Shown: piece by piece, positions 1 to 48,315 of the stretch
Layout of the letters: each line of letters starts with the position of its first letter
Numbering within the stretch: the stretch's first letter is position 1
Origin: a phage
Strand: one strand, 5' to 3'
DNA length: 64,000 nucleotides
Sequence record: PZ386948.1
Program-made: the position numbers and the translations under genes
The notes under the pieces: generated by a model
What the model saw: only the letters and a program-made list of their open reading frames with translations
Told to the model about the DNA's origin: nothing
Databases searched by the model: none

Positions 1-1457
1 ATTTTCTTTTTCCAATCTTTACGTTGGAAAAATACTTTAGCGATTTCCTTTGGAATGATACCTTCTTGATGCTTATCATACATCCATCCATTCGGAGAAC
101 AAGAATATTCATCACTTGGCTTAGGAGCTGTTCCTGCGATATATTCATGAATTGGATGAACTTTAAACTGACCACGAATAGTCTCAGGACTAATGTTAAC
201 CTGACGAATAATGCTAGGATACAGAGACGTCAAGTCAAAACTCATAATGTATCGACGAGCAATCGGTTTAGGTTCAAATACAAATGCACCTGGAAAACTT
301 TGTTTAACGTGCGAACCTTGTTGAGGAATAACCTTATGTTCACCTTTCAACGAGTTAAAAATAATAGCATCCCAAGTTTTAATAGGACTCATTACACCAG
401 AAAAAGGCATTTTAGCATAATAAGACATACTTAAAACTAGATCGATAAACCCACGAATTTTATCAATTGCTTGAACTGATTCTACGTCAATGATGTTATA
501 ACTAATGTATCGTTGATGATTAGTCTCACGAAGTTTATTAATAGGACCGTCGTATGGCAATTTACCTTTTTTGGTTTCATGTTGAGCAACTGATTCCAAA
601 GAGAATGATGGCAAATTAGTAAATGCGAATTTCTTGTACAAATCTAAATAATCAAGAATAGATACGCCATCAATAGAATAAATTTCTTTGCTACCGTACA
701 TATTTTGAATTAGTTTAGATTTTACTCGACCGATTGGAGAGAAGCGTTTCATACTGCGTTCGCCCAGAACCATTTTAACACGATTCATGATATACGGAAC
801 GTCAAATCCCTCAATATTCCAGCCGGTAAAAATAGCAGGTCTTTTCTGTTCCCAGAGATTAATATATTCCATGAGCATATCACGCTCATTATCAAATGGC
901 ATATAAATTACTCGGTCAAGAATTTCTTGAGGAACTTCATCACCACCTTCACAGTCAAGTTTAGCAGCTAACTTTGCATCCCATTTTGATACTGAACCGT
1001 ACATTGAATTCAACAAATCAAAGACGTAAAAACGGTCGTCAATTGAATCATAATGAGTGATAGCATCAATTTCATATTCTGCTTTCATTGGGTCAGGAAA
1101 TTTATCACCAGTAACCTCAATGTCACAGTTAGCTACACGAACAAATTTTCGGTCATAAACAATTTCTGAACCATATGTATCACTGATATAAGCGAGTTTA
1201 AAATCGTTCATACCGAGAGCTTCGAGACCGATGTCTTCCATTCGCTTCATCCAATCTCGAGCATCTTTCATTGATGGAAATTTTTGAGGAGCGCAGTTTT
1301 TACCATAGATGTCTTTGTATTTTGACTCTTCCTTACAATGCCTAAACATAGTTGGAAGATATTCTACTTCACGAGTACGTTCCTTTCCGTTTTCATCAAT
1401 ATAACGTTCAACAATGTTATTTCCGACTGTTTCAATAGAGATATAAAATTCTTTCAT
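1..1457 (-). CDS. 43: DNA polymerase (T4 gp43-like), N-terminal part; rest of gene lies beyond window start
   Basis: Minus-strand ATG at 1455-1457 reads MKEFYISIE...; N-terminus matches remembered T4 gp43; openness of the frame to position 1 is assumed (no complete minus ORF in the track here), not traced; lies upstream of regA as in T4. Confidence 0.85.
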   Translation of the reverse strand, partial: MKEFYISIETVGNNIVERYIDENGKERTREVEYLPTMFRHCKEESKYKDIYGKNCAPQKFPSMKDARDWMKRMEDIGLEALGMNDFKLAYISDTYGSEIVYDRKFVRVANCDIEVTGDKFPDPMKAEYEIDAITHYDSIDDRFYVFDLLNSMYGSVSKWDAKLAAKLDCEGGDEVPQEILDRVIYMPFDNERDMLMEYINLWEQKRPAIFTGWNIEGFDVPYIMNRVKMVLGERSMKRFSPIGRVKSKLIQNMYGSKEIYSIDGVSILDYLDLYKKFAFTNLPSFSLESVAQHETKKGKLPYDGPINKLRETNHQRYISYNIIDVESVQAIDKIRGFIDLVLSMSYYAKMPFSGVMSPIKTWDAIIFNSLKGEHKVIPQQGSHVKQSFPGAFVFEPKPIARRYIMSFDLTSLYPSIIRQVNISPETIRGQFKVHPIHEYIAGTAPKPSDEYSCSPNGWMYDKHQEGIIPKEIAKVFFQRKDWKKK

Positions 1458-14302: not shown

Positions 14303-14773
14303 TTAATCATGTTTCCACACCCCATCGGTATTTGACCAAAGCCGCTGATTATCTGATCCTCTCCACAGCTTTTTGGTCGGAAGATTTTTCTCATACTTCC
14401 CATCAATAATAACATCAACATATTTAAGCATTTCTAGTTGTTTAATATCTTCAAACTTATATCCTGTCCACAACCAAATGCTTTTATTTGGATAAAGATT
14501 TTTTACTGTTTGAACAATGCAATGAATAACATCTCGATTATCAGGATAGAGAGGGTCTCCTCCAGTTATAGTTAATCCTTCTATATAATCATTATTCAAA
14601 CATTCAATTAATTGTTCTAGTGTTTCACCAGTAAATGGAATACCATTTCTAGCATTCCATGTTGATTTATTATAACACCCTTCGCATTTATGCAAACAAC
14701 CTGTAACGAAAAGAACGGCCCTGCATCCAGGGCCGTTCACAAAATCGCAAGGATAAAATCTATCATAATTCAT
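14303..14773 (-). CDS. nrdG: anaerobic ribonucleotide reductase activating protein NrdG (radical SAM)
   Basis: 156 aa; Cys cluster FVTGCLHKCEGCYN near N-terminus (radical-SAM 4Fe-4S motif); abuts nrdD. Confidence 0.88.
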   Translation of the reverse strand: MNYDRFYPCDFVNGPGCRAVLFVTGCLHKCEGCYNKSTWNARNGIPFTGETLEQLIECLNNDYIEGLTITGGDPLYPDNRDVIHCIVQTVKNLYPNKSIWLWTGYKFEDIKQLEMLKYVDVIIDGKYEKNLPTKKLWRGSDNQRLWSNTDGVWKHD

Positions 14774-16587
14774 TGGTGTTTAACCCTATGCATGATTTCT
14801 TTATTTTTACCGAGATTAAATCCGCGTTCGTTCGGATTTCCCAAATAACCACATGTTCTTCTTATTGTGTTCATCTTTTTAGGATCAGTTTCTCCACAAA
14901 TAGAACAAACAAATCCGTTTTCAGTAGGAGTCATTTCATGGGTACTTCCACATGTAAAACATTTATCTACTGGCATATTAACACCAAAATAATCTAAATG
15001 TTGTGCAGCATAATCCCATACGGCCTCAAGACCCTTTAAGTTATTTTTCATATCAGGAAGTTCAACATAAGAAATGTGACCACCTGTCGCAATGAAATGA
15101 TATGGCGCTTCACGAGAAATCTTTTCAAACGGAGTAATATTTTCTTCTACTGAAACGTGGAAACTGTTAGTGTACCAGCCTTTATCGGTAACATCTTTTA
15201 CACTTCCATATTTTTCTGTATCAAGTTTACAGAAGCGATAACAAAGGTTTTCAGCAGGAGTCGAATATAAACTAAAAGCAAATCCAGTTCTTTCAGTCCA
15301 CTGTTTAAGATGAGCATTCATTTTAGTTAAAATTTCTTGTCCAATATCACGACCGACAAGAATATTCAATTCGTGAATACCAATGTATCCTAGGGACACT
15401 GAACTTCTACCGTTTTTAAATAACTCAATTATGTCGTCATCAGGTTTAAGACGAACCCCGAATGCACCTTCTTGGTAAAGAATAGGAGCAACAGTAGCTT
15501 TAACTCCTTTTAAGGAACTAATTCTACACATCAATGCTTCAAAACATAAATCCATTCGTTCATTGAACAATTCAACAAATTTCTGTTCATTGAATTGTGT
15601 TCCAATATAAGAATCTAACGCGATGCGAGGAAGATTCAATGTTACAACACCAAGATTATTACGTCCATCAAGAATTTCATTGCCAGTCGAATCTTTCCAT
15701 ACGCTCAAGAAACTACGGCATCCCATCGGAGAAACAGGAACAGATGAACCAGTGATAGCTTTATTGTTCTTAGCCGAAATGATGTCAGGATACATTCTTT
15801 TGCTTGCGCACTCTAAAGCAAGCTGCTTAATATCATAGTTCGGGTCGTCTTTATAAAGATTAACACCTTCTTCAACGAACATAACAAGCTTAGGGAAAAT
15901 AGGAGTTATCCCATCACGACCAAGACCTTTAATACGATTTTTCAGAATTGCTTTCTGAATCATTCGTTCAGTCCAGTCAGTTCCCGTACCAAATGTAATT
16001 GTTACAAAAGGCGTTTGTCCGTTTGAACTAAAGAGAGTATTTACTTCATATTCATAAGCTTGGAATGCATCGTATACGTCTTTTTCTGTTTTAGATTGAG
16101 CATAATTTAACGCATCAGCGATTTGCCATTTTTCTGCATCCTCAATATGTTTTGCATAGGTGCGTTTAACATAAGGAGAAAGTACTTTATCTACATTAGC
16201 AAAAGTCGTTCCGCCGTATTGATGGGAAGCAACCTGTGCAGTAATTTGTGCCATAATTGCAGTAGCAACACCGATTGATTTAGGAGTTTCAATCTGTGCA
16301 TTACCAAGCTTAAATCCATTCTCAAGCATTCCTTTTAAATCTACTAAACAACAATTAGTAAATGGAAGAGCAGGGGAATAATCAATATCGTGGAAATGAA
16401 TAATTCCGCTTTCATGCGCTTTCATAATAAAAGACGGGACCATATTTTTGGCAATGTGTTTAGACACAATACCAGCCATAAGGTCCCGTTGAGTTGGAAA
16501 AACACGAGAATCTTTATTAGCATTCTCGTTTAAAAGGTCTTTATTAGTTTTATGAATCAATCCTTCAATTTCTTTTTCAATTGTCAT
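14770..16587 (-). CDS. nrdD: anaerobic ribonucleoside-triphosphate reductase NrdD, uninterrupted
   Basis: 605 aa continuous ORF; C-terminal CxxC...CxxC zinc site and glycyl-radical loop LGNPNERGFNLG; no intron. Confidence 0.9.
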   Translation of the reverse strand: MTIEKEIEGLIHKTNKDLLNENANKDSRVFPTQRDLMAGIVSKHIAKNMVPSFIMKAHESGIIHFHDIDYSPALPFTNCCLVDLKGMLENGFKLGNAQIETPKSIGVATAIMAQITAQVASHQYGGTTFANVDKVLSPYVKRTYAKHIEDAEKWQIADALNYAQSKTEKDVYDAFQAYEYEVNTLFSSNGQTPFVTITFGTGTDWTERMIQKAILKNRIKGLGRDGITPIFPKLVMFVEEGVNLYKDDPNYDIKQLALECASKRMYPDIISAKNNKAITGSSVPVSPMGCRSFLSVWKDSTGNEILDGRNNLGVVTLNLPRIALDSYIGTQFNEQKFVELFNERMDLCFEALMCRISSLKGVKATVAPILYQEGAFGVRLKPDDDIIELFKNGRSSVSLGYIGIHELNILVGRDIGQEILTKMNAHLKQWTERTGFAFSLYSTPAENLCYRFCKLDTEKYGSVKDVTDKGWYTNSFHVSVEENITPFEKISREAPYHFIATGGHISYVELPDMKNNLKGLEAVWDYAAQHLDYFGVNMPVDKCFTCGSTHEMTPTENGFVCSICGETDPKKMNTIRRTCGYLGNPNERGFNLGKNKEIMHRVKHQ

Positions 16588-32474: not shown

Positions 32475-32812
32475 CTAGTACTCAATCCTCGATTATAAGA
32501 ATCTACTAAACGGTCAACCATTGAATGACAAGCGGCTTTATCTTTCTCCTCCGCAACTGAACATTCTAAAGTATTCCACTTTTTAGCATATCGTTTTAAC
32601 AATGTATCATTTTTATATCTGCTTGATTTATCTCTTTCTCCGTCTTTATATGCATATATTAATTTCTGCGCAAATTCAGCTTGGCATGCTTTATTTTTCC
32701 CACAATAATCCGCGGCAGTACGGTTTACATACTCTCTAATTTCAGTATATGATGTATCTGCTAACGCAGAAAATGAAATTAATCCTATACATAAAACCAA
32801 AATTTTAGTCAT
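32471..32812 (-). CDS. secreted/periplasmic protein
   Basis: 113 aa; N-terminal signal peptide MTKILVLCIGLISFSALA; four Cys. Confidence 0.45.
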   Translation of the reverse strand: MTKILVLCIGLISFSALADTSYTEIREYVNRTAADYCGKNKACQAEFAQKLIYAYKDGERDKSSRYKNDTLLKRYAKKWNTLECSVAEEKDKAACHSMVDRLVDSYNRGLSTR

Positions 32813-33350
32813 TTACTATTTCCAAAAGTTTATTATTTTTAAGGTAATTAGCCTTTTCTAGGACTTCAGAAGCATATTTAGAACCAGCTTTAACATTCCA
32901 TCCCGAATTATAAGAGGATATTGCTTTTCTTATATCGCCCTTATGTATATTTAACCAATAAGAAAGTTCAATGTACGCCCAGGAAGCTGAATTGGATCGT
33001 TTATTCAACATTCTTTTTATTTCAGCATCGGTCATATTATAACCAAGTTCCTTAACTCTTGCTCGCATAGTAGGCAAATAATTTTGGAACATTCCATAAG
33101 CGTGATGCTTTGGTTTAGATTTTAAATTAACTCCGCCAGAGCTTTCTTGCCATAAAATAGCAGCCATTATATGACCTAATCCGCTCTTGTGGATATTTTT
33201 GTGTGTTTTATATTTTCCATCCTTAGAAAATTGTTCCCCGAATTGATACGCGTAACGCATGTTATCGAGTTGGACATTACTGAAAGTATGCTCGGAGCTA
33301 TGTGCCATCATTGAAATGGCCAATAGACCAGCGAGTAGTGCTTTTCTCAT
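32805..33350 (-). CDS. secreted protein, possible lytic transglycosylase-like
   Basis: 181 aa; signal peptide MRKALLAGLLAISMMAHS; QESSG and YNSG motifs reminiscent of SLT domain (weak). Confidence 0.4.
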   Translation of the reverse strand: MRKALLAGLLAISMMAHSSEHTFSNVQLDNMRYAYQFGEQFSKDGKYKTHKNIHKSGLGHIMAAILWQESSGGVNLKSKPKHHAYGMFQNYLPTMRARVKELGYNMTDAEIKRMLNKRSNSASWAYIELSYWLNIHKGDIRKAISSYNSGWNVKAGSKYASEVLEKANYLKNNKLLEIVND

Positions 33351-33357
33351 GCTTACC

Positions 33358-33819
33358 TCATTGAGTTTTAATTACTGCTTTAGAAGCCTTTCCTGGTAAA
33401 CGACGACTGTTAATAATTGCCATCCTACATTGAAGTGACGGGTCTTTGAACTTCGCATTAGGTTTACAAACTGTAAATCCAAGCCAAAGATTTCCATCTG
33501 TGATTTCTAAACGTCCAGGACGGTATTCAACCCCATCAATAAAATCCTCGTCAATGTCAGGACGCGGAGGCATACTCAGGAATTCATTAACTTCTAAAAC
33601 ATGGTCTTTTATTTTGTGGAATAATTCAAAAACATATGTCTCATCAATCTCCCGTTGAATTGCACGATCAAGAAGATGCTGAGAATATTTTAGATGAAAC
33701 GATGAGACCCCTGCTGCTTTTGATGCCTCACGAATCTCATTGTTAATTTGACGAAACTCCGACTCAAAGTGACGACGAAGCTTATTTCGACGGATAAAAA
33801 CTTCTGTGTTGATAGTCAT
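33358..33819 (-). CDS. regB: RegB site-specific endoribonuclease
   Basis: 153 aa; sequence and position match remembered T4 RegB. Confidence 0.75.
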   Translation of the reverse strand: MTINTEVFIRRNKLRRHFESEFRQINNEIREASKAAGVSSFHLKYSQHLLDRAIQREIDETYVFELFHKIKDHVLEVNEFLSMPPRPDIDEDFIDGVEYRPGRLEITDGNLWLGFTVCKPNAKFKDPSLQCRMAIINSRRLPGKASKAVIKTQ

Positions 33820-33878
33820 GTTATTCTCCTCTTAACTGATAGAAAAATTATACCACAGTCAAGAGGAAAAGTAAACAG

Positions 33879-34199
33879 TTATTCTTTAAATCTAATCAAT
33901 TTATTCATAGACTTTGAAACTTCTGCACGGACCTCATGAAGGTTTTTGAGCTGTTCAAGACGTTGCTCATAGTAAGCAATTTCATCTTCTTCAAGACAGT
34001 CCTGTGAATCTTCTTTAAGATAACGTGCATAGTCCTGAAAAGCTTTACGGACTACTTCCTGGAAGTCATCAAGACTTTGAATTTTCTTAGGAGCAGCAGA
34101 CACACGACGAGGGGCAGTATAATACTCATAACCAAACCCTGCGCTTAATTGAGCCATTAGTATTTTTCCTCTGGTTGGAACACAGCACGACAAGCCCAC
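33879..34199 (-). CDS. hypothetical protein
   Basis: 106 aa ORF. Confidence 0.4.
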
Positions 34200-34459
34200 A
34201 TACTGGCTTCTTTGAGTTTCGTTTTAGCAATAGCTAAATGATCGAGGCTTTCAGCGTAATTCTTCGCGAGTTCAAAGTCTTCGCAATTATCTAGTGCTTC
34301 CCAGAATTCATCATATAAAGCATCAAAGATAAGTCCTAAACGAACTTCAGCGTCTTTAATAGCATTTACTTTACCGATTTTTTCGTCGGTATGTGGCTTA
34401 TAACCTTTAATATCTTCAATCATATTTGACTTCCTCACCAGTACATAAATCGTATTCAA
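34157..34459 (-). CDS. hypothetical protein
   Basis: 100 aa ORF. Confidence 0.4.
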
Positions 34460-34637
34460 CTAAACGAATAGGTTCATGAATGCCATATCCTTGAACAGAA
34501 ATTTCTGTCGTAGGATAAATTCCATTAATATCACCCATGTTCCATGCTTCGTTAAATTGCTGTTCGCCTGAATTACTAAACCACTCGGCGAAAGCATTTA
34601 GCACATCTTCAGAACCTTCAATAATTATCTTTGCCAT
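34416..34637 (-). CDS. hypothetical protein
   Basis: 73 aa ORF. Confidence 0.4.
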   Translation of the reverse strand: MAKIIIEGSEDVLNAFAEWFSNSGEQQFNEAWNMGDINGIYPTTEISVQGYGIHEPIRLVEYDLCTGEEVKYD

Positions 34638-34999
34638 TACAAACTCTCGGTGAAGGTACGAGCGATAACGTCGCGCTGCTGTTCCGGAGTCAGAGAGTTA
34701 AAGCGAACTGCATAACCGGATACACGGATGGTCAGCTGCGGATATTTTTCCGGATGCTTAACTGCATCTTCCAGAGTTTCACGACGCAGAACGTTAACGT
34801 TCAGGTGTTGACCACCTTCAATTTTAACTGTAGGCTGTTGCTCAATTTCAATTTCACGGGCATGCAAACCATAGAAAATTTCTGGGTCTACAAAAGAGTC
34901 CTCTTTAAAGGTTTTAGAGACAATAATTCGTGCTTGAATACCATCTTCAAAATAAATAGTACCTTTATGTGTGCCTTCAAGAATTTGATATGCTTTCAT
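34637..34999 (-). CDS. autonomous glycyl-radical cofactor (GrcA/YfiD-like)
   Basis: 120 aa; C-terminal glycyl-radical motif [13 protein letters not shown]. Confidence 0.8.
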
Positions 35000-35005
35000 A
35001 TAACC

Positions 35006-35386
35006 TCAATTAGAAAATAAATTTATCCAAGATTGTTCTTTAATTAAAAATGGCTCAGAATCATATGCCATTAAACTCTGTGTGATTAGTCCTTTAAAAG
35101 GCCCATCAATAAATTCCATGGTAAAATATGGAATTTTATTCATTAGCCGTGCATTAGGAGCCGTGCACAAAACTCTGCATCCTTTGAATACGCCTTTTTG
35201 TAATTTGTATTGCTTGGGATAAAATTCGCTCAAAATGTTATTTTTTGCCAAAATTTCAAAATGATTCACCAATTTATTTTTAATAGTTTTTGGCGAAAAA
35301 TAAAGATATTCGAAAAGCTGAGTGTCTGTCATCATTGCATTCCGATTACGAAAAACTGTGGACGAGTAATACCACCAATGCAACAT
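35006..35386 (-). CDS. hypothetical protein
   Basis: 126 aa ORF. Confidence 0.4.
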   Translation of the reverse strand: MLHWWYYSSTVFRNRNAMMTDTQLFEYLYFSPKTIKNKLVNHFEILAKNNILSEFYPKQYKLQKGVFKGCRVLCTAPNARLMNKIPYFTMEFIDGPFKGLITQSLMAYDSEPFLIKEQSWINLFSN

Positions 35387-35871
35387 TTAATATTACAGCA
35401 GCAGTGTACAGTGTCAATATGGACACTATAAATCTTATCCATATCAGGAGATTTGACAGGCTCATCAATTATATACAAAATTCGCGAAAGCGATAAACCT
35501 CTGAACTTGCTTCCTTTATTACCAATAAAACTGCGCACAGAATCAGTAAATAAACGAAAACGTATATCATCATTAGAATAACGCGAAAATTCCTTTTTAA
35601 TATTATCTGCGGAAATTTTAGCGTAAGCTGAAGTATTAGAAAGAACAATAACTGTTCCACCGTCATACAACCAATTAGCGGCAAAATTAGTTACTGCAGT
35701 TGATTTACCAGATTGACGCCCACCATCTAGTCGAAGTGTACAATACTGTTTAAGTAAGTCTTCAAATGGCGGGATATATTCGTTTTTACAAATTTCTTCT
35801 ACTCTAGCATCAGAATGGTGTGTAAAAGCATTCATCAGGGATAGATAAGGACCAGTTAAAAATGTTCTCAT
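35332..35871 (-). CDS. P-loop protein with C-terminal Cys cluster
   Basis: Walker A-like GGRQSGKST; C-terminal CCCNIKCC; start set at MRTFLTG. Confidence 0.45.
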   Translation of the reverse strand: MRTFLTGPYLSLMNAFTHHSDARVEEICKNEYIPPFEDLLKQYCTLRLDGGRQSGKSTAVTNFAANWLYDGGTVIVLSNTSAYAKISADNIKKEFSRYSNDDIRFRLFTDSVRSFIGNKGSKFRGLSLSRILYIIDEPVKSPDMDKIYSVHIDTVHCCCNIKCCIGGITRPQFFVIGMQ

Positions 35872-36016
35872 TTTGTTCTCTCTAGGTTTGGGCCATTCCA
35901 TGGCGCATGAATTGTCCATTTCTGTATTTACCCATTACCGCACTTGGGCTCGACCTTATTACAGGTTGGCGGGAATCCCTCACAGAATCATGAGGTCCAG
36001 GTTATTCCCATGTTAT

Positions 36017-36433
36017 TTAAATGTAAATATTTTTGCCGTAATACTTATACCAGTGTGGCTTCATTAAAATTTTTTCATCGAGTCGTTGTTGACTCAACTT
36101 AATAGCTGATTTGCATGGATTATAATCATTTTTCCATTCTACTGGAATATCGCTGATGTCAGGAACTTCAGTATCTTTTATACTGAACCCGCGTTTTAAG
36201 CATTCCGTTATAATGTCCGATTGACGCTTTCGCAAAAATTCTAACTTATCGTAAAAGAAAGTAACATGACCAGAACCTAAAATAAATTTAGAAGATATTT
36301 TAAAATCTTTAACGCGCTTACCGTTTGCCACATGCTTACGAACTATACCAAAAACACGCGGCAATTCACGGTATTCTGCGATTAAATGTTGATCAGCAAG
36401 TTCAGATACTAAAGTCAAATTAATACGAGTCAT
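36017..36433 (-). CDS. denV: endonuclease V (pyrimidine-dimer DNA glycosylase)
   Basis: 138 aa [28 protein letters not shown]... matches remembered T4 DenV. Confidence 0.9.
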
Positions 36434-36492
36434 TTTATCCCTCCAAGTAACTGTGAATATACTATCACAATTCTAGGAGAAAGTAAACAACT

Positions 36493-37023
<531 letters not shown>

Positions 37024-40694: not shown

Positions 40695-41168
40695 TTATTT
40701 GATTTGTTTAGCAGACCAAATGCGATCTTTAATAATTTTTTGGATGTCTTCAACATACACAAGAGAGTGAGCATGTGGATTATCTTTGAAACTATAAGCA
40801 CGAGCTAGTTTTTGGCCTTCAGTTTTGATTACTAAAAGCTCTTTAAGGATAGCTTCATATTTGGAGATAATTCCTTTAACAATATTTTTTTCTTGTGCAG
40901 CTTTAGGATCTGCTTTAGGAGCAGGTTTACCCGAAGCCTTTGCAAAAGCAGCGCCAGTAGCAACTAAACTTTTCCAGGCCATACTAACTGCATTTCCCGT
41001 AAATCCTTCCGCTTTCATGTCGCGTGCGAACTGGAATCGCGATTCATCAGAAGCATCTTTATAAGAATATTTACCCGCTGCAATGGCTGCTTTTGCGACA
41101 GCTTGAATTTCGGTGCTAGATGCTTCATTTAACACCGCTTCATTTAAAAATTGAGTATATGATTTCAT
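40695..41168 (-). CDS. internal-protein-like ORF with capsid-targeting-like N-terminus
   Basis: 157 aa; N-terminus MKSYTQFLNEA resembles T-even internal-protein targeting sequence MKTYQEFIAEA; Ala/Lys-rich. Confidence 0.45.
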   Translation of the reverse strand: MKSYTQFLNEAVLNEASSTEIQAVAKAAIAAGKYSYKDASDESRFQFARDMKAEGFTGNAVSMAWKSLVATGAAFAKASGKPAPKADPKAAQEKNIVKGIISKYEAILKELLVIKTEGQKLARAYSFKDNPHAHSLVYVEDIQKIIKDRIWSAKQIK

Positions 41169-42353: not shown

Positions 42354-43004
42354 TTATATATTGTTAATTTGATTTAGAATTCTTTTTGCTTGAGTATGAC
42401 TTACGCCAATATGCTTAGCATATTTAGACAATTCGCCACGTTTAGAAAAATCATATAATTTAGAAATTTCTATTCTTCTTTTTCTTTCATCCGCAGAAAC
42501 TTTTGCTTCGTTTGCTTTTGCTATTTTACGTTTAGCTTCTTGAGAATGAGTTTTACCAGCAAAGCCATTCTTCATTAATCCATTTGAAGACCATCCTTTT
42601 AATTTTCCGTTAGAATGTGCCTTTTTAACACCCAATGAAATTAATTCGCGTTGCTGATCTGTCATAGGATAATTATTTATATGATCCCATCCACCTTCAC
42701 CTCCAAGTTTTAAATTATACACATCTGGTCTATTTAAAAACTCTTCTGTGACAATATTTTTCTCGGCTTCAAGCATAGATTCTTTATCGTCAAAATACTC
42801 TAATATTTCTTTAGAAAAATTTTCTATACCATATTTATCTTGGGCTCTTTTTAATAATTTACCAGAACCCATATATCCATCATCTAAATTTTCGGTAGAA
42901 TGCACACCAATATAAATTTTATTATTAATTTTATTTGTTATTTTATAAAGATAAAAATGCATATCAGTCCCTAATAAAGAACTGAGCGTCTCACGACGAG
43001 TCAT
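42354..43004 (-). CDS. GIY-YIG homing endonuclease (SegB-like)
   Basis: 216 aa; GIY-YIG core YLYKITNKINNKIYIGV; C-terminal HTH-like tail; embedded between tRNA-Ser and tRNA-Gly. Confidence 0.75.
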   Translation of the reverse strand: MTRRETLSSLLGTDMHFYLYKITNKINNKIYIGVHSTENLDDGYMGSGKLLKRAQDKYGIENFSKEILEYFDDKESMLEAEKNIVTEEFLNRPDVYNLKLGGEGGWDHINNYPMTDQQRELISLGVKKAHSNGKLKGWSSNGLMKNGFAGKTHSQEAKRKIAKANEAKVSADERKRRIEISKLYDFSKRGELSKYAKHIGVSHTQAKRILNQINNI

Positions 43005-43180: not shown

Positions 43181-43813
43181 TTATTTATTACGTGAAAAAG
43201 ACTGTTCTATCAATTCTGGACACTTTCGTTCTATCCATTTTCTAGCTTTTTGTGGGCTTATACCTATTATTTTAGCAGCTTTACTAACCCATCCAAATTT
43301 AGAATAATCGATTTTAACTAATTCTTCGTAAATTTCATCAGTTAAAATCTTTTCATTAATATTTACCAGTAAATGATATAATTTATTATCATTAGCAATT
43401 TTAATGAATCTTTTATAGTTTCCGCCTTTACTTAAACCTAATGAAGTAATTGCAGATGATATAGTAGCCGAATTTAATAGTGCGTTTAAAATTTCTTCAT
43501 CACTAACATTATAACGCTTTTTATTATTTTTAATATTTTTACCAGCAAAAGTATCAGTTTGCGAATGGCAGTTTGGACATAATAATCTTAAATTTGATTT
43601 AAGATGATTTTTGTTATTTCCATCAATATGGTCTAATTGCAGAACAATATGCTTATTTTGCCATTTTGAAATTTTACAAATTGCACACTCATATGGAAAA
43701 ATATTTTCTTTTATTATTTTGTCTTTCAGCTTTCCTGTACTAAAATTTGGATGTTTTCCTTCAAAAATTTCAGCTAATTTAGTATCCATAATATGATTCC
43801 CAATTATTAACAA
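43181..43813 (-). CDS. HNH homing endonuclease with zinc-finger and C-terminal HTH-like tail
   Basis: 210 aa; CAIC...HIDGNNKNH...NLRLLCPNCH; abuts tRNA-Leu. Confidence 0.7.
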   Translation of the reverse strand: MLIIGNHIMDTKLAEIFEGKHPNFSTGKLKDKIIKENIFPYECAICKISKWQNKHIVLQLDHIDGNNKNHLKSNLRLLCPNCHSQTDTFAGKNIKNNKKRYNVSDEEILNALLNSATISSAITSLGLSKGGNYKRFIKIANDNKLYHLLVNINEKILTDEIYEELVKIDYSKFGWVSKAAKIIGISPQKARKWIERKCPELIEQSFSRNK

Positions 43814-45325: not shown

Positions 45326-45550
45326 TTATTCAACGCCAGCGGCTTTCAAAAGTTTCTTAAGATTGGCAACACCTTGAGCAGAAAATGTGACCTTGCCACC
45401 TTTTTCACTGATAGAACCAACCAATTTAGCAAGTTTATCATTAGGAATTTTTTTAAAATCAGCCAATGTTCCATCAAAGGTTTTTGAAACAAAAGGCAGT
45501 TCGTCTTCGCGTCTTTTAGCTTCTACAATAAATTCTTGATATGTTTTCAT
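45326..45550 (-). CDS. internal-protein-like (capsid-targeting N-terminus)
   Basis: Start MKTYQEFIVEA... equals T-even IP targeting sequence consensus; preceded by promoter repeat. Confidence 0.65.
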   Translation of the reverse strand: MKTYQEFIVEAKRREDELPFVSKTFDGTLADFKKIPNDKLAKLVGSISEKGGKVTFSAQGVANLKKLLKAAGVE

Positions 45551-45586
45551 TTTAGTTTCCATTTGAGTGTTTGTTTTGATAGGGTA

Positions 45587-45616
45587 ATAGTATCACTACT
45601 AAAACCCAATGTAAAC
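45587..45616 (-). promoter_or_regulatory. early-type promoter repeat (GTTTACA-17-TACTAT) for IP-like gene 45326-45550
   Basis: Minus-strand GTTTAC/TTTACA then 17 nt then TGxTACTAT; same ~55-bp unit repeated at 45293, 45953, 46283. Confidence 0.55.
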
Positions 45617-45634
45617 AACTTTGTGAAAAATTTA

Positions 45635-45922
45635 TTACAAAAGATTTTTAGCAATAATCTTGAGATGTGCCGCAGAAATGTGTTTAGCTTTAAACAACGC
45701 AGTTTCTTCAGCAGGAGAGATAACGATTGTAGCACCATCCTTTTTAGCAGACCACCCATCGCCTAGGTAAACAGTACCTTTGATTTCTTCGCCATCAACC
45801 AGACTAATCATTGGTTTACCTTCTCGTCCTTTATTTGCTTTAATAACTTCAGAAGTAAGAGTAGCTTCGGTAATAGTAGAAACCGGGGTAGTTGTAGAAG
45901 TAAATTCTTTGAAAGTTTTCAT
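45635..45922 (-). CDS. internal-protein-like (capsid-targeting N-terminus)
   Basis: 95 aa; MKTFKEFTSTTTPVSTITEA...; preceded by promoter repeat. Confidence 0.6.
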   Translation of the reverse strand: MKTFKEFTSTTTPVSTITEATLTSEVIKANKGREGKPMISLVDGEEIKGTVYLGDGWSAKKDGATIVISPAEETALFKAKHISAAHLKIIAKNLL

Positions 45923-45952
45923 TTTATTTTCCTAATTAATTTTGATAGGGTA

Positions 45953-45982
45953 ATAGTATCACAACTAAAACCCTATGTAAAC
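45953..45982 (-). promoter_or_regulatory. early-type promoter repeat for IP-like gene 45635-45922
   Basis: Same repeat unit. Confidence 0.55.
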
Positions 45983-45994
45983 AACTTTGTGAAA

Positions 45995-46252
45995 TTATTT
46001 TAAATCTTCTAATCGTTTCTTCATCTTAGAACCGTTCTTAGCGATTTCGCCTGCATCAGAGCATAATGCTAAAAGCGCTTTAACTTTAGTTTGGTCTCCT
46101 TTAAAAGATGAAGGATCAACAGCAGCAGCAAGTTCTTTAATACGAGAGAAAAGACGCTCAGCTTCAGCTAAAGCCATTCCAAGCTTTACTTCCATACCGC
46201 GGGAAGATTCAGTAATAGTAGTTTTTGTAGCAAACTCTTTGAAAGTTTTCAT
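45995..46252 (-). CDS. internal-protein-like (capsid-targeting N-terminus)
   Basis: 85 aa; MKTFKEFATKTTITES...; preceded by promoter repeat. Confidence 0.6.
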   Translation of the reverse strand: MKTFKEFATKTTITESSRGMEVKLGMALAEAERLFSRIKELAAAVDPSSFKGDQTKVKALLALCSDAGEIAKNGSKMKKRLEDLK

Positions 46253-46282
46253 TTTATTTTCCTAATTAATTTTGATGAGGTA

Positions 46283-46312
46283 ATAGTATCACTACCTCAT
46301 CAGTATGTAAAC
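46283..46312 (-). promoter_or_regulatory. early-type promoter repeat for IP-like gene 45995-46252
   Basis: Same repeat unit. Confidence 0.55.
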
Positions 46313-46324
46313 AACTTTGTGAAA

Positions 46325-47009
<685 letters not shown>

Positions 47010-47010
<1 letters not shown>

Positions 47011-47735
47011 TATAGTACCTTTAGTGTATTTTTAATTTTAGAAAAAAGTTCTTCAAGAGAACCATCGTTTGTAATTACTAAATCGCCATCACGAATTGGC
47101 AATCCAGCTTCTGTAATATGTGTATCATTGGATTTTTGACCAGGACGAACTACATGAATTACTGTAGCACCCATCGCCCTAGCCGCATCCATTTCATGAT
47201 CTTGACGGGTATCAGGAACGATATAATAATCATAACCTGAGTTAAATTTATCAAGATAATCTAAAGCAAATAATTTTACCCAGTACATGCGGTCGAAGTT
47301 ATTAACAATCAAATCCGTACCTAGGGCTTGCATCAGACGACGGACTGACCATTGATCTTCAATATTATTTATAACGTCAATAATCTTGTTAAATGCTACG
47401 GAATTAACTGATTCTTGTCCTTCGTCATCAAAAACAAACACACCCTTAATTGGGCTTTTACCGTTAAGATAGCAAAATGCTTGTTCCATAATCGTGATTA
47501 CTTCTGATTTAGTCAGATTTAAATTAGTCTCACGATCATAGTCAATTCCTTCAAACTCTTTACGAGTTAAGCAAGGATAGTCAGTGTTTGCTGCAAATAC
47601 TCCCCATGCATAAGCCAATGCATCCTTAATAGGACCAGCAAGTTGGTATTTAACTGCAGAATAATTGCTCATGATAAAATCAGCAGTAGTATCTTTTCCA
47701 CTACGCTTTACACCGCTTAAAAAGATTAGTTTCAT
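47010..47735 (-). CDS. 1: deoxynucleoside monophosphate kinase gp1
   Basis: Start set at MKLIFLSGVKRSGKDT (P-loop) giving 241 aa as T4 gp1. Confidence 0.85.
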
Positions 47736-47784
47736 GTGTTTCTCCTCAAATTTAATTAAGATTATAACACACAAAACTGAAGCA

Positions 47785-48315
47785 TTAAACTTCTGCTATA
47801 ATTTTACCATCTTTTTCTACTTGAAAATACGTATAAGGAATCGTAGCTGTACATACTAAAGCCGGGTCTGAATCTTCTGTGTAGCTAAATTCTACTTCAG
47901 ATAGGTCAGAAACCCAAGGCTTATAAAAATTTATTGACATCACGATTTCAGTTTTGCTATTATCTAAGATGTAAAGCGTAATGTACTCAGGACCTGTTTT
48001 TTGGGCAGTATTTTCACCTGTAAGATAGTTGCTAGTTCCTAGCATCCATTCATACATTCCTATCCACGACTTAAGTTCTTCATCAACTATAAATCTCACA
48101 ATGAGTGGATCATACTCAAATGTAACACCTGGACGTTGTGCTCTACCCAGTCCAAACGGCCCAGTCACGGTATCAGTAACAGGTATTCTAATTCCTGGAA
48201 TAGGAACTGACTGAGCATTTAAAGTAAAAGCAGATGTAGTATTACTATGTGGTATTGATACTACAAAGTTAGTTGTATTTGCTTGGTTAAAAATTTGTTG
48301 CAGAGCTTGCGACAT
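47785..48315 (-). CDS. 3: tail completion / sheath stabiliser gp3
   Basis: Start set at internal Met MSQALQQIF giving 176 aa; synteny 1-3-2-4. Confidence 0.7.
   Translation of the reverse strand: MSQALQQIFNQANTTNFVVSIPHSNTTSAFTLNAQSVPIPGIRIPVTDTVTGPFGLGRAQRPGVTFEYDPLIVRFIVDEELKSWIGMYEWMLGTSNYLTGENTAQKTGPEYITLYILDNSKTEIVMSINFYKPWVSDLSEVEFSYTEDSDPALVCTATIPYTYFQVEKDGKIIAEV

Follow-up and report, generated by a model that had tools for sequence, protein, structure and literature searches.

A T4-type phage gene for a GrcA-like glycyl radical protein carries a tract identical to the grcA gene of E. coli

The window, by which we mean the whole 64,000-nucleotide stretch of phage DNA analysed here (sequence record PZ386948.1), encodes a complete GrcA-like protein on its minus strand, with the ATG at 34999..34997 and the TAA at 34639..34637. 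The radical glycine of the protein is G95 (codon 34715..34717), which lies within the glycyl radical signature and aligns with G102 of E. coli GrcA and with G734 of PflB (numbering as in PMC12338860). Because the Shine-Dalgarno sequence of the gene overlaps the stop codon of vs.7, and its TAA overlaps the ATG of vs.5 (TAATG at 34635..34639), we regard it as one cistron in a tightly packed early-gene cluster. Scanned for promoters and terminators, positions 33300..36600 gave 10 promoter-like sites against 11.1 expected, with counts as in shuffled sequence, and for this reason no dedicated regulatory element is claimed for the gene. The features of the locus, together with the two anaerobic ribonucleotide reductase genes of the window, are collected in Table 1.

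Table 1. Position and supporting evidence of the features discussed in the text.
Feature	Coordinates in the window	Strand	Evidence
GrcA-like CDS, complete, 120 aa	34637..34999	minus	ORF list; T4 vs.6 orthology; Pfam, NCBIfam and PDB matches
Phage-specific 5′ half, gene nt 1-178, residues 1-59, GC 0.33	34822..34999	minus	alignment, dN/dS, AF2 model
Host-identical tract, 169 nt, gene nt 179-347, encodes the glycyl radical domain	34653..34821	minus	alignment, longest exact match, blastn, GC step
Glycyl radical signature, 13 residues (92-104)	34688..34726	minus	motif position; residue-by-residue alignments to 6owr and 1cm5/1h16
Shine-Dalgarno GAGG, 4 nt 5′ of the ATG, overlaps the vs.7 stop codon	35004..35007	minus	sequence context
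nrdD, anaerobic ribonucleotide reductase	14770..16587	minus	Pfam NRDD 1.7e-171 and Gly_radical 1.2e-25; annotation
nrdG, radical-SAM activase of NrdD	14303..14773	minus	Pfam Fer4_12 4.1e-48 and Radical_SAM 2.2e-07; annotation

Pfam Gly_radical (PF01228) matches with E=2.5e-18 and 67 bits against a cut-off of 22.2, far beyond chance, and the NCBIfam GrcA equivalog model TIGR04365 matches with E=1.2e-45, aligning residues 20-120 to model positions 25-126. The TIGR04365 score of 154.9 bits falls below the curated cut-off of 170 because the N-terminal half of the protein has diverged. The structure of E. coli GrcA/YfiD (PDB 6owr) is matched with E=9e-42, and the last 63 residues of the window protein are identical to it. 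The first-pass annotation, made from the letters alone, had placed a GrcA/YfiD-like cofactor with a C-terminal glycyl-radical signature at this position; the open reading frame, the signature and the family assignment are all borne out, the last also by orthology with T4 vs.6. The alignment to E. coli GrcA that it had proposed as a check extends over nearly the full length, and over the radical-glycine region, where a lack of alignment had been named as counter-evidence, the two proteins are identical.

Comparison with the known relatives places the protein more precisely. PflB is matched with E=5e-26, residues 58-120 aligning to PflB 697-759 at 76% identity, including the RVSGYAV loop, and the C-terminal radical domain is shared with PflB (PDB 1h16, 1cm5, 1mzo) in fold as well as in sequence. 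Unlike PflB, however, the window protein is a stand-alone protein of 120 residues with its own start and stop, of which only the last 63 residues align, and it lacks the catalytic barrel of about 700 residues and the Cys418/Cys419 pair; it is therefore no pyruvate formate-lyase. Accordingly, the pyruvate formate-lyase identity given in some phage records was rejected, the corresponding model TIGR01255 scoring 89 bits against a cut-off of 994 and matching at model positions 680-744 only. A close likeness is to E. coli GrcA/YfiD (P68066; 6owr), a small autonomous glycyl radical domain protein whose N-terminal half is recognisably homologous to that of the phage protein, with R24, K29, D34 and other residues conserved. 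The window protein is 7 residues shorter than E. coli GrcA and only weakly similar to it over the N-terminal 57 residues, and the gene differs from E. coli grcA in being phage-encoded, in its AT-rich 5′ half and in lacking the regulatory context of the host gene. The short GrcA2 and GrcA3 variants (NF008341, NF038360) match the radical-domain half of the window protein (residues 57-120), but are proteins of about 80 residues without the N-terminal half, and the window protein scores below their cut-offs (94 against 145 and 106 against 158). In an AlphaFold2 model of the window protein (mean pLDDT 73.6), the C-terminal half can be overlaid, with an rmsd of about 1 A, on a number of glycyl-radical domains, among them those of PFL, CutC and diol dehydratase.

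The window belongs to a Tequatrovirus, and the 10 kb around the GrcA-like gene are 100% identical to Shigella phage CM8, the first mismatch to the CM8 record (NC_054939) being found at window position 40759. That RefSeq record holds an extra 974-bp tandem copy in the IpI/Ip5/57B region which is absent at window positions ~45600..47800. A tandem duplication of 974 bp in the window, suspected from the CM8 annotation, was thus rejected, since the copy is present in the CM8 record only; either the window is a very close relative of CM8 and distinct from the deposited record, or the duplication in CM8 arose during assembly. In the same part of the window, a 123-nt element occurs in three direct copies (45522..45644, 45888..46010 and 46218..46340), which are 61-88% identical to the reference copy, lie 366 and 330 nt apart and fall in line with the points where small internal-protein genes start; they probably represent shared upstream and leader regions of the Ip genes. 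By the CM8 annotation, two homing/HNH endonuclease genes of 609 nt each are inserted in the tRNA gene cluster (window 42354..42962 and 43181..43789).

The GrcA-like gene of the window is the positional orthologue of T4 vs.6, whose product is Y06I. In both phages vs.5 and vs.7 flank the gene, regB and vs being found on its downstream side and vs.8 and denV on its upstream side. The two proteins are equal in length and 98% identical, differing at 2 of the 120 residues (Q54 in the window and P54 in T4; R73 in the window and H73 in T4), and residue 73 is the host residue in the window protein and not in T4 Y06I. RefSeq labels the CM8 protein (YP_010075923.1) ‘autonomous glycyl radical cofactor GrcA’, and T4 vs.6 (NP_049730) is likewise annotated as GrcA. 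Megablast detects the gene in 757 phage records and blastn in about 1,500, with carriers among Tequatrovirus, Mosigvirus, Jiaodavirus, Slopekvirus, Winklervirus, Pseudotevenvirus, Aeromonas phages and T5-like phages, and it is present in 6 of 6 T4-like genomes (Nolan et al. 2006, PMC1524935). The window gene is therefore an already known and already annotated T4-type phage GrcA, and its re-identification is mostly a correct annotation. Labels elsewhere are less consistent: PHROGs lists the family (phrog_1209) as ‘unknown function’, and many GenBank phage records name the gene ‘pyruvate formate-lyase’, ‘2-ketobutyrate formate-lyase’ or ‘hypothetical protein’. As the T4 member has been characterised since 2001, the PHROGs and GenBank labels could be corrected.

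Several neighbouring genes carry labels that deserve comment in their own right. The vs.4 orthologue (34157..34423, minus strand, 88 aa), two genes downstream of the GrcA-like gene, is called hypothetical in RefSeq CM8 and matches Pfam Acb2_Tad1_hairpin (E=1.7e-20), an anti-CBASS cyclic-nucleotide sponge family. In NC_054939, vs.1, vs.7 and vs.8 bear the label ‘Endoribonuclease RegB T4-bacteriophage encoded’, and vs.3 is given a ‘RegB domain’ product (window 32805..33350, 35006..35335 and 35332..35871). These labels look like carried-over mislabels, and for vs.3, vs.7 and vs.8 no Pfam RegB match was found; vs.8 gave a weak match to AAA_14 (E=0.002) and a weak match to a PHROGs terminase large subunit (E=2e-06). 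Further upstream, at 36433..36493, the lysozyme gene e directly follows denV, and ipII and ipIII, which lie between them in T4, are absent.

Next, we consider the two halves of the gene separately. In an alignment of 36 phage and bacterial GrcA sequences, R24 is invariant and Q5, K29 and D34 are nearly so. The N-terminal half is thus a diverged homologue of the bacterial N-terminus, which probably makes the gene a full-length relative of grcA and not a fusion. A blastn search of 50,697 phage records with the 5′ half of E. coli grcA gave no match. The dN/dS over codons 1-59 lies between 0.07 and 0.16 in all comparisons; the N-terminal half is under purifying selection, which argues that the domain is functional. 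In the AF2 model the N-terminal part is predicted to form a small beta-sheet domain of four strands with a pLDDT of about 85. A KOW/SH3-like fold for this domain was not supported, the fold-search matches having E > 0.1. The confident beta-sheet prediction differs from the N-terminus of YfiD, which has been described as disordered (PMC13450708); the 6owr structure contains 60 residues. The N-terminus of YfiD promotes radical installation by PFL-AE and is dispensable for catalysis afterwards (PMC13450708), and by analogy the phage domain may interact with the activase.

The 3′ half is different. We found that gene nt 179-347 equal nt 200-368 of E. coli grcA at 169 of 169 positions, every synonymous site included, and that the 5′ junction of the identity is sharp. 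The GC content is 0.51 in the host-identical half, against the low value of the 5′ half. When all 5,426 complete E. coli genomes were searched with blastn, gene nt 179-363 were matched at 95-99% (97.3%). The tract is specifically E. coli-like, with 98-99% identity compared with about 91% for Citrobacter. Conversely, the E. coli grcA 3′ half matches phage records in a bimodal fashion, with 639 at 95% identity or above, 8 at 90-95% and 864 at 60-90%. T4 has the same mosaic DNA structure, but its uninterrupted host-identical tract is 138 nt long, and compared with T4 the window copy has three extra synonymous changes near the stop codon. In the searchable literature, outside which most subscription journals lie, we found no description of a host-derived mosaic or of the evolution of phage grcA.

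Could selection on the protein alone account for this identity? Slopekvirus, Pseudotevenvirus and Winklervirus, lineages that we refer to as unconverted, encode almost the same domain protein, and yet their tract DNA is only 80-83% identical; their dS to E. coli is about 1.8, compared with 0.047 for the window copy. At the divergence of these lineages, the chance of 169 identical positions out of 169 is below 1e-13, and protein-level constraint alone was rejected as the cause. Transfer in the opposite direction, from phage to host, was rejected as well: in E. coli the tract runs on without a break from a bacterial-type 5′ half and has host-like GC (0.51 versus 0.33), and its divergence from the grcA of Citrobacter and Salmonella is graded as in vertical descent (dS 0.41 and 1.07). 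Between Tequatrovirus and Mosigvirus, dS is about 0.44 in the 5′ half and 0.07-0.15 in the 3′ half, and since the 3′ value is below the 5′ value, the tract is younger than the split between the two genera. The phage copies in each of the two also have private differences from the E. coli sequence.

A counterpart with another donor is found in the Klebsiella phage KPV15 (Jiaodavirus, NC_055715), whose homologue has a 3′ half with a GC of 0.57 and 86.5% identity to E. coli grcA. A 23-mer from this 3′ half led to human-gut metagenome contigs with a bacterial-type grcA, which differs from the KPV15 copy at one position in gene nt 180-337 (158 nt) and is 97.1% identical to it over 171 nt. The protein encoded by the metagenome gene equals, without any difference, GRCA_KLEP7, which is the GrcA of K. 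pneumoniae, K. variicola and K. quasipneumoniae. To the 5′ side of nt 179 the DNA of the KPV15 gene shows no relationship to that of the Klebsiella gene. The junction in KPV15 is thus that of the E. coli phages, and the donor is a different one. In protein sequence, the E. coli-type and Klebsiella-type tracts differ at 2 residues of the domain and, in addition, by S or A at the last residue but one. In the KPV15 record itself (locus 301..662), the GrcA-like gene is annotated as two CDSs owing to the loss of 1 nt near gene nt 126, and a near-identical metagenome phage contig has an intact 120-aa ORF; the frameshift points either to an error in sequencing or to a pseudogene of recent origin. On the strength of this frameshifted record, the gene may be dispensable at least sometimes.

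Collectively, the simplest reading of these sequence comparisons would be that, in an old phage grcA-like gene, the chromosomal gene of the current host has on at least two occasions replaced the radical-domain half. In its specific form, namely that this half is repeatedly replaced by host grcA at one junction, the codon before a 10-residue stretch, with E. coli as the donor in Tequatrovirus and Mosigvirus, Klebsiella as the donor in Jiaodavirus and an N-terminal half that descends vertically, we give the reading about an even chance. The conversion could be either selected, by matching the host PflA and PflB, or a neutral outcome of recombination across a conserved stretch.

With respect to function, E. 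coli YfiD and T4 Y06I, both of about 14 kDa, are the only two validated examples of spare-part proteins (PMC8683613). In that source, which cites Wagner et al. (2001, BBRC 285:456), both are described as receiving the radical from PFL-AE and then restoring the function of O2-cleaved PFL, and a 2026 review (PMC13450708), citing the same study, agrees on the activation of Y06I and YfiD by PFL-AE and on the rescue of PFL. In vivo, formate production by a PflB G734A strain requires GrcA (PMC12338860). This biochemistry is that of T4 Y06I and not of the exact window protein, which has Q instead of P at residue 54 and R instead of H at residue 73. Because of the 98% identity and the unchanged radical domain, the mechanism of Y06I is by far the likeliest one for the window protein also. 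The rescue of oxygen-damaged host enzymes, which the first-pass annotation had put forward as a possibility, thus has an in vitro precedent in the T4 orthologue, according to these two sources. We consider it very probable that the window protein is a phage ‘spare-part’ GrcA/YfiD for oxygen-damaged host pyruvate formate-lyase.

Under this proposal, the 14-kDa GrcA-like protein would be produced after infection from the early-gene cluster, and the host PFL-activating radical-SAM enzyme PflA would take a hydrogen from G95 to generate the glycyl radical. The C-terminal domain would then dock into host PflB whose own radical domain is O2-cleaved or otherwise inactive, and the radical would be handed to PflB Cys419, which would restore the reaction that turns pyruvate into acetyl-CoA plus formate. 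Fermentative energy, or ATP, and the supply of acetyl-CoA could in this way be kept up under fluctuating low oxygen at a time when replacement of host proteins has ceased. From this we infer a benefit of PFL rescue to the phage in vivo; a search of the literature for an in vivo phage phenotype of the gene found none.

The target of the protein might also be a different one. PFL-type host enzymes other than PflB, such as the 2-ketobutyrate formate-lyase TdcE with its closely related C-terminus, might be served besides or instead of PflB. A median of 3 gene-like places per E. coli genome is consistent with grcA, pflB and a paralogue, and PMC8683613 speculates that GrcA-like proteins repair other glycyl-radical enzymes; the experimental evidence in that source covers the repair of PFL only, however, and we hold such a wider or different target to be improbable, although it is compatible with PflB rescue and does not exclude it. 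Another possible partner is encoded by the phage itself. The first-pass annotation had pointed to nrdD and nrdG as a companion glycyl-radical system, and both are confirmed by profile, so that the phage carries two glycyl-radical components. Given that these genes lie in the same genome and on the same strand, the GrcA-like protein could be activated by NrdG and replace the O2-cleaved radical domain of NrdD, in which case its role would be in nucleotide metabolism and not in fermentation. This is very unlikely, because the genes are about 18 kb apart and form no unit, a pairwise comparison of the protein with the NrdD of the window gave nothing significant (best BLASTP E=3.9, with the radical loop unaligned), and its radical domain is 100% identical to that of host GrcA and 76% identical to PflB. 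PMC8683613 also reports activation by PFL-AE and rescue of PFL. The GrcA-like protein and NrdD belong to different branches of the glycyl-radical superfamily.

Two further explanations would deny the protein a role in repair, and we attach hardly any weight to either. As a mimic of GrcA, the protein could act as a decoy that titrates PflA or blocks PflB and so shuts down or redirects host fermentation, for which the phage N-terminal half, strongly unlike the bacterial one, and the modulation of radical installation by PFL-AE through the YfiD N-terminus (PMC13450708) might be cited. Such a role is nevertheless extremely improbable, since nothing is altered at the radical glycine or in any of the residues around it, which all match host GrcA, and PMC8683613 reports that the T4 orthologue restores PFL and does not inhibit it. 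That the gene is a passenger without function, brought in by recombination as a piece of host DNA and carried along, would fit the 169-nt identity to host DNA and the one frameshifted homologue record (KPV15). It is contradicted by an ORF that is intact in hundreds of independent phage genomes, by the low dN/dS (0.07-0.16) of a 5′ half that is not of host origin, by a host-derived tract whose junction invariably preserves the frame and falls at one and the same codon, and by the biochemical activity of the T4 protein, as described in PMC8683613; the chance that the gene is a mere passenger is accordingly minute. PFL rescue remains the preferred reading.

Taken together, these results place the window gene among known T4-type genes, and it offers a clear case of a repair part for a host metabolic enzyme being carried by a phage. 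The known part is the gene itself; the host-specific mosaic is an unexpected and modestly interesting by-product of the analysis. The mosaic suggests an ongoing gene conversion from the host chromosome into a lytic phage, one by which host DNA is degraded. The donor species can be read from the 3′ tract, which would therefore be a natural marker of the recent host history of T-even phages. If the conversion is selected, and not a neutral by-product of T4-type recombination, it would keep the host-interacting module matched to PflA and PflB after host shifts.
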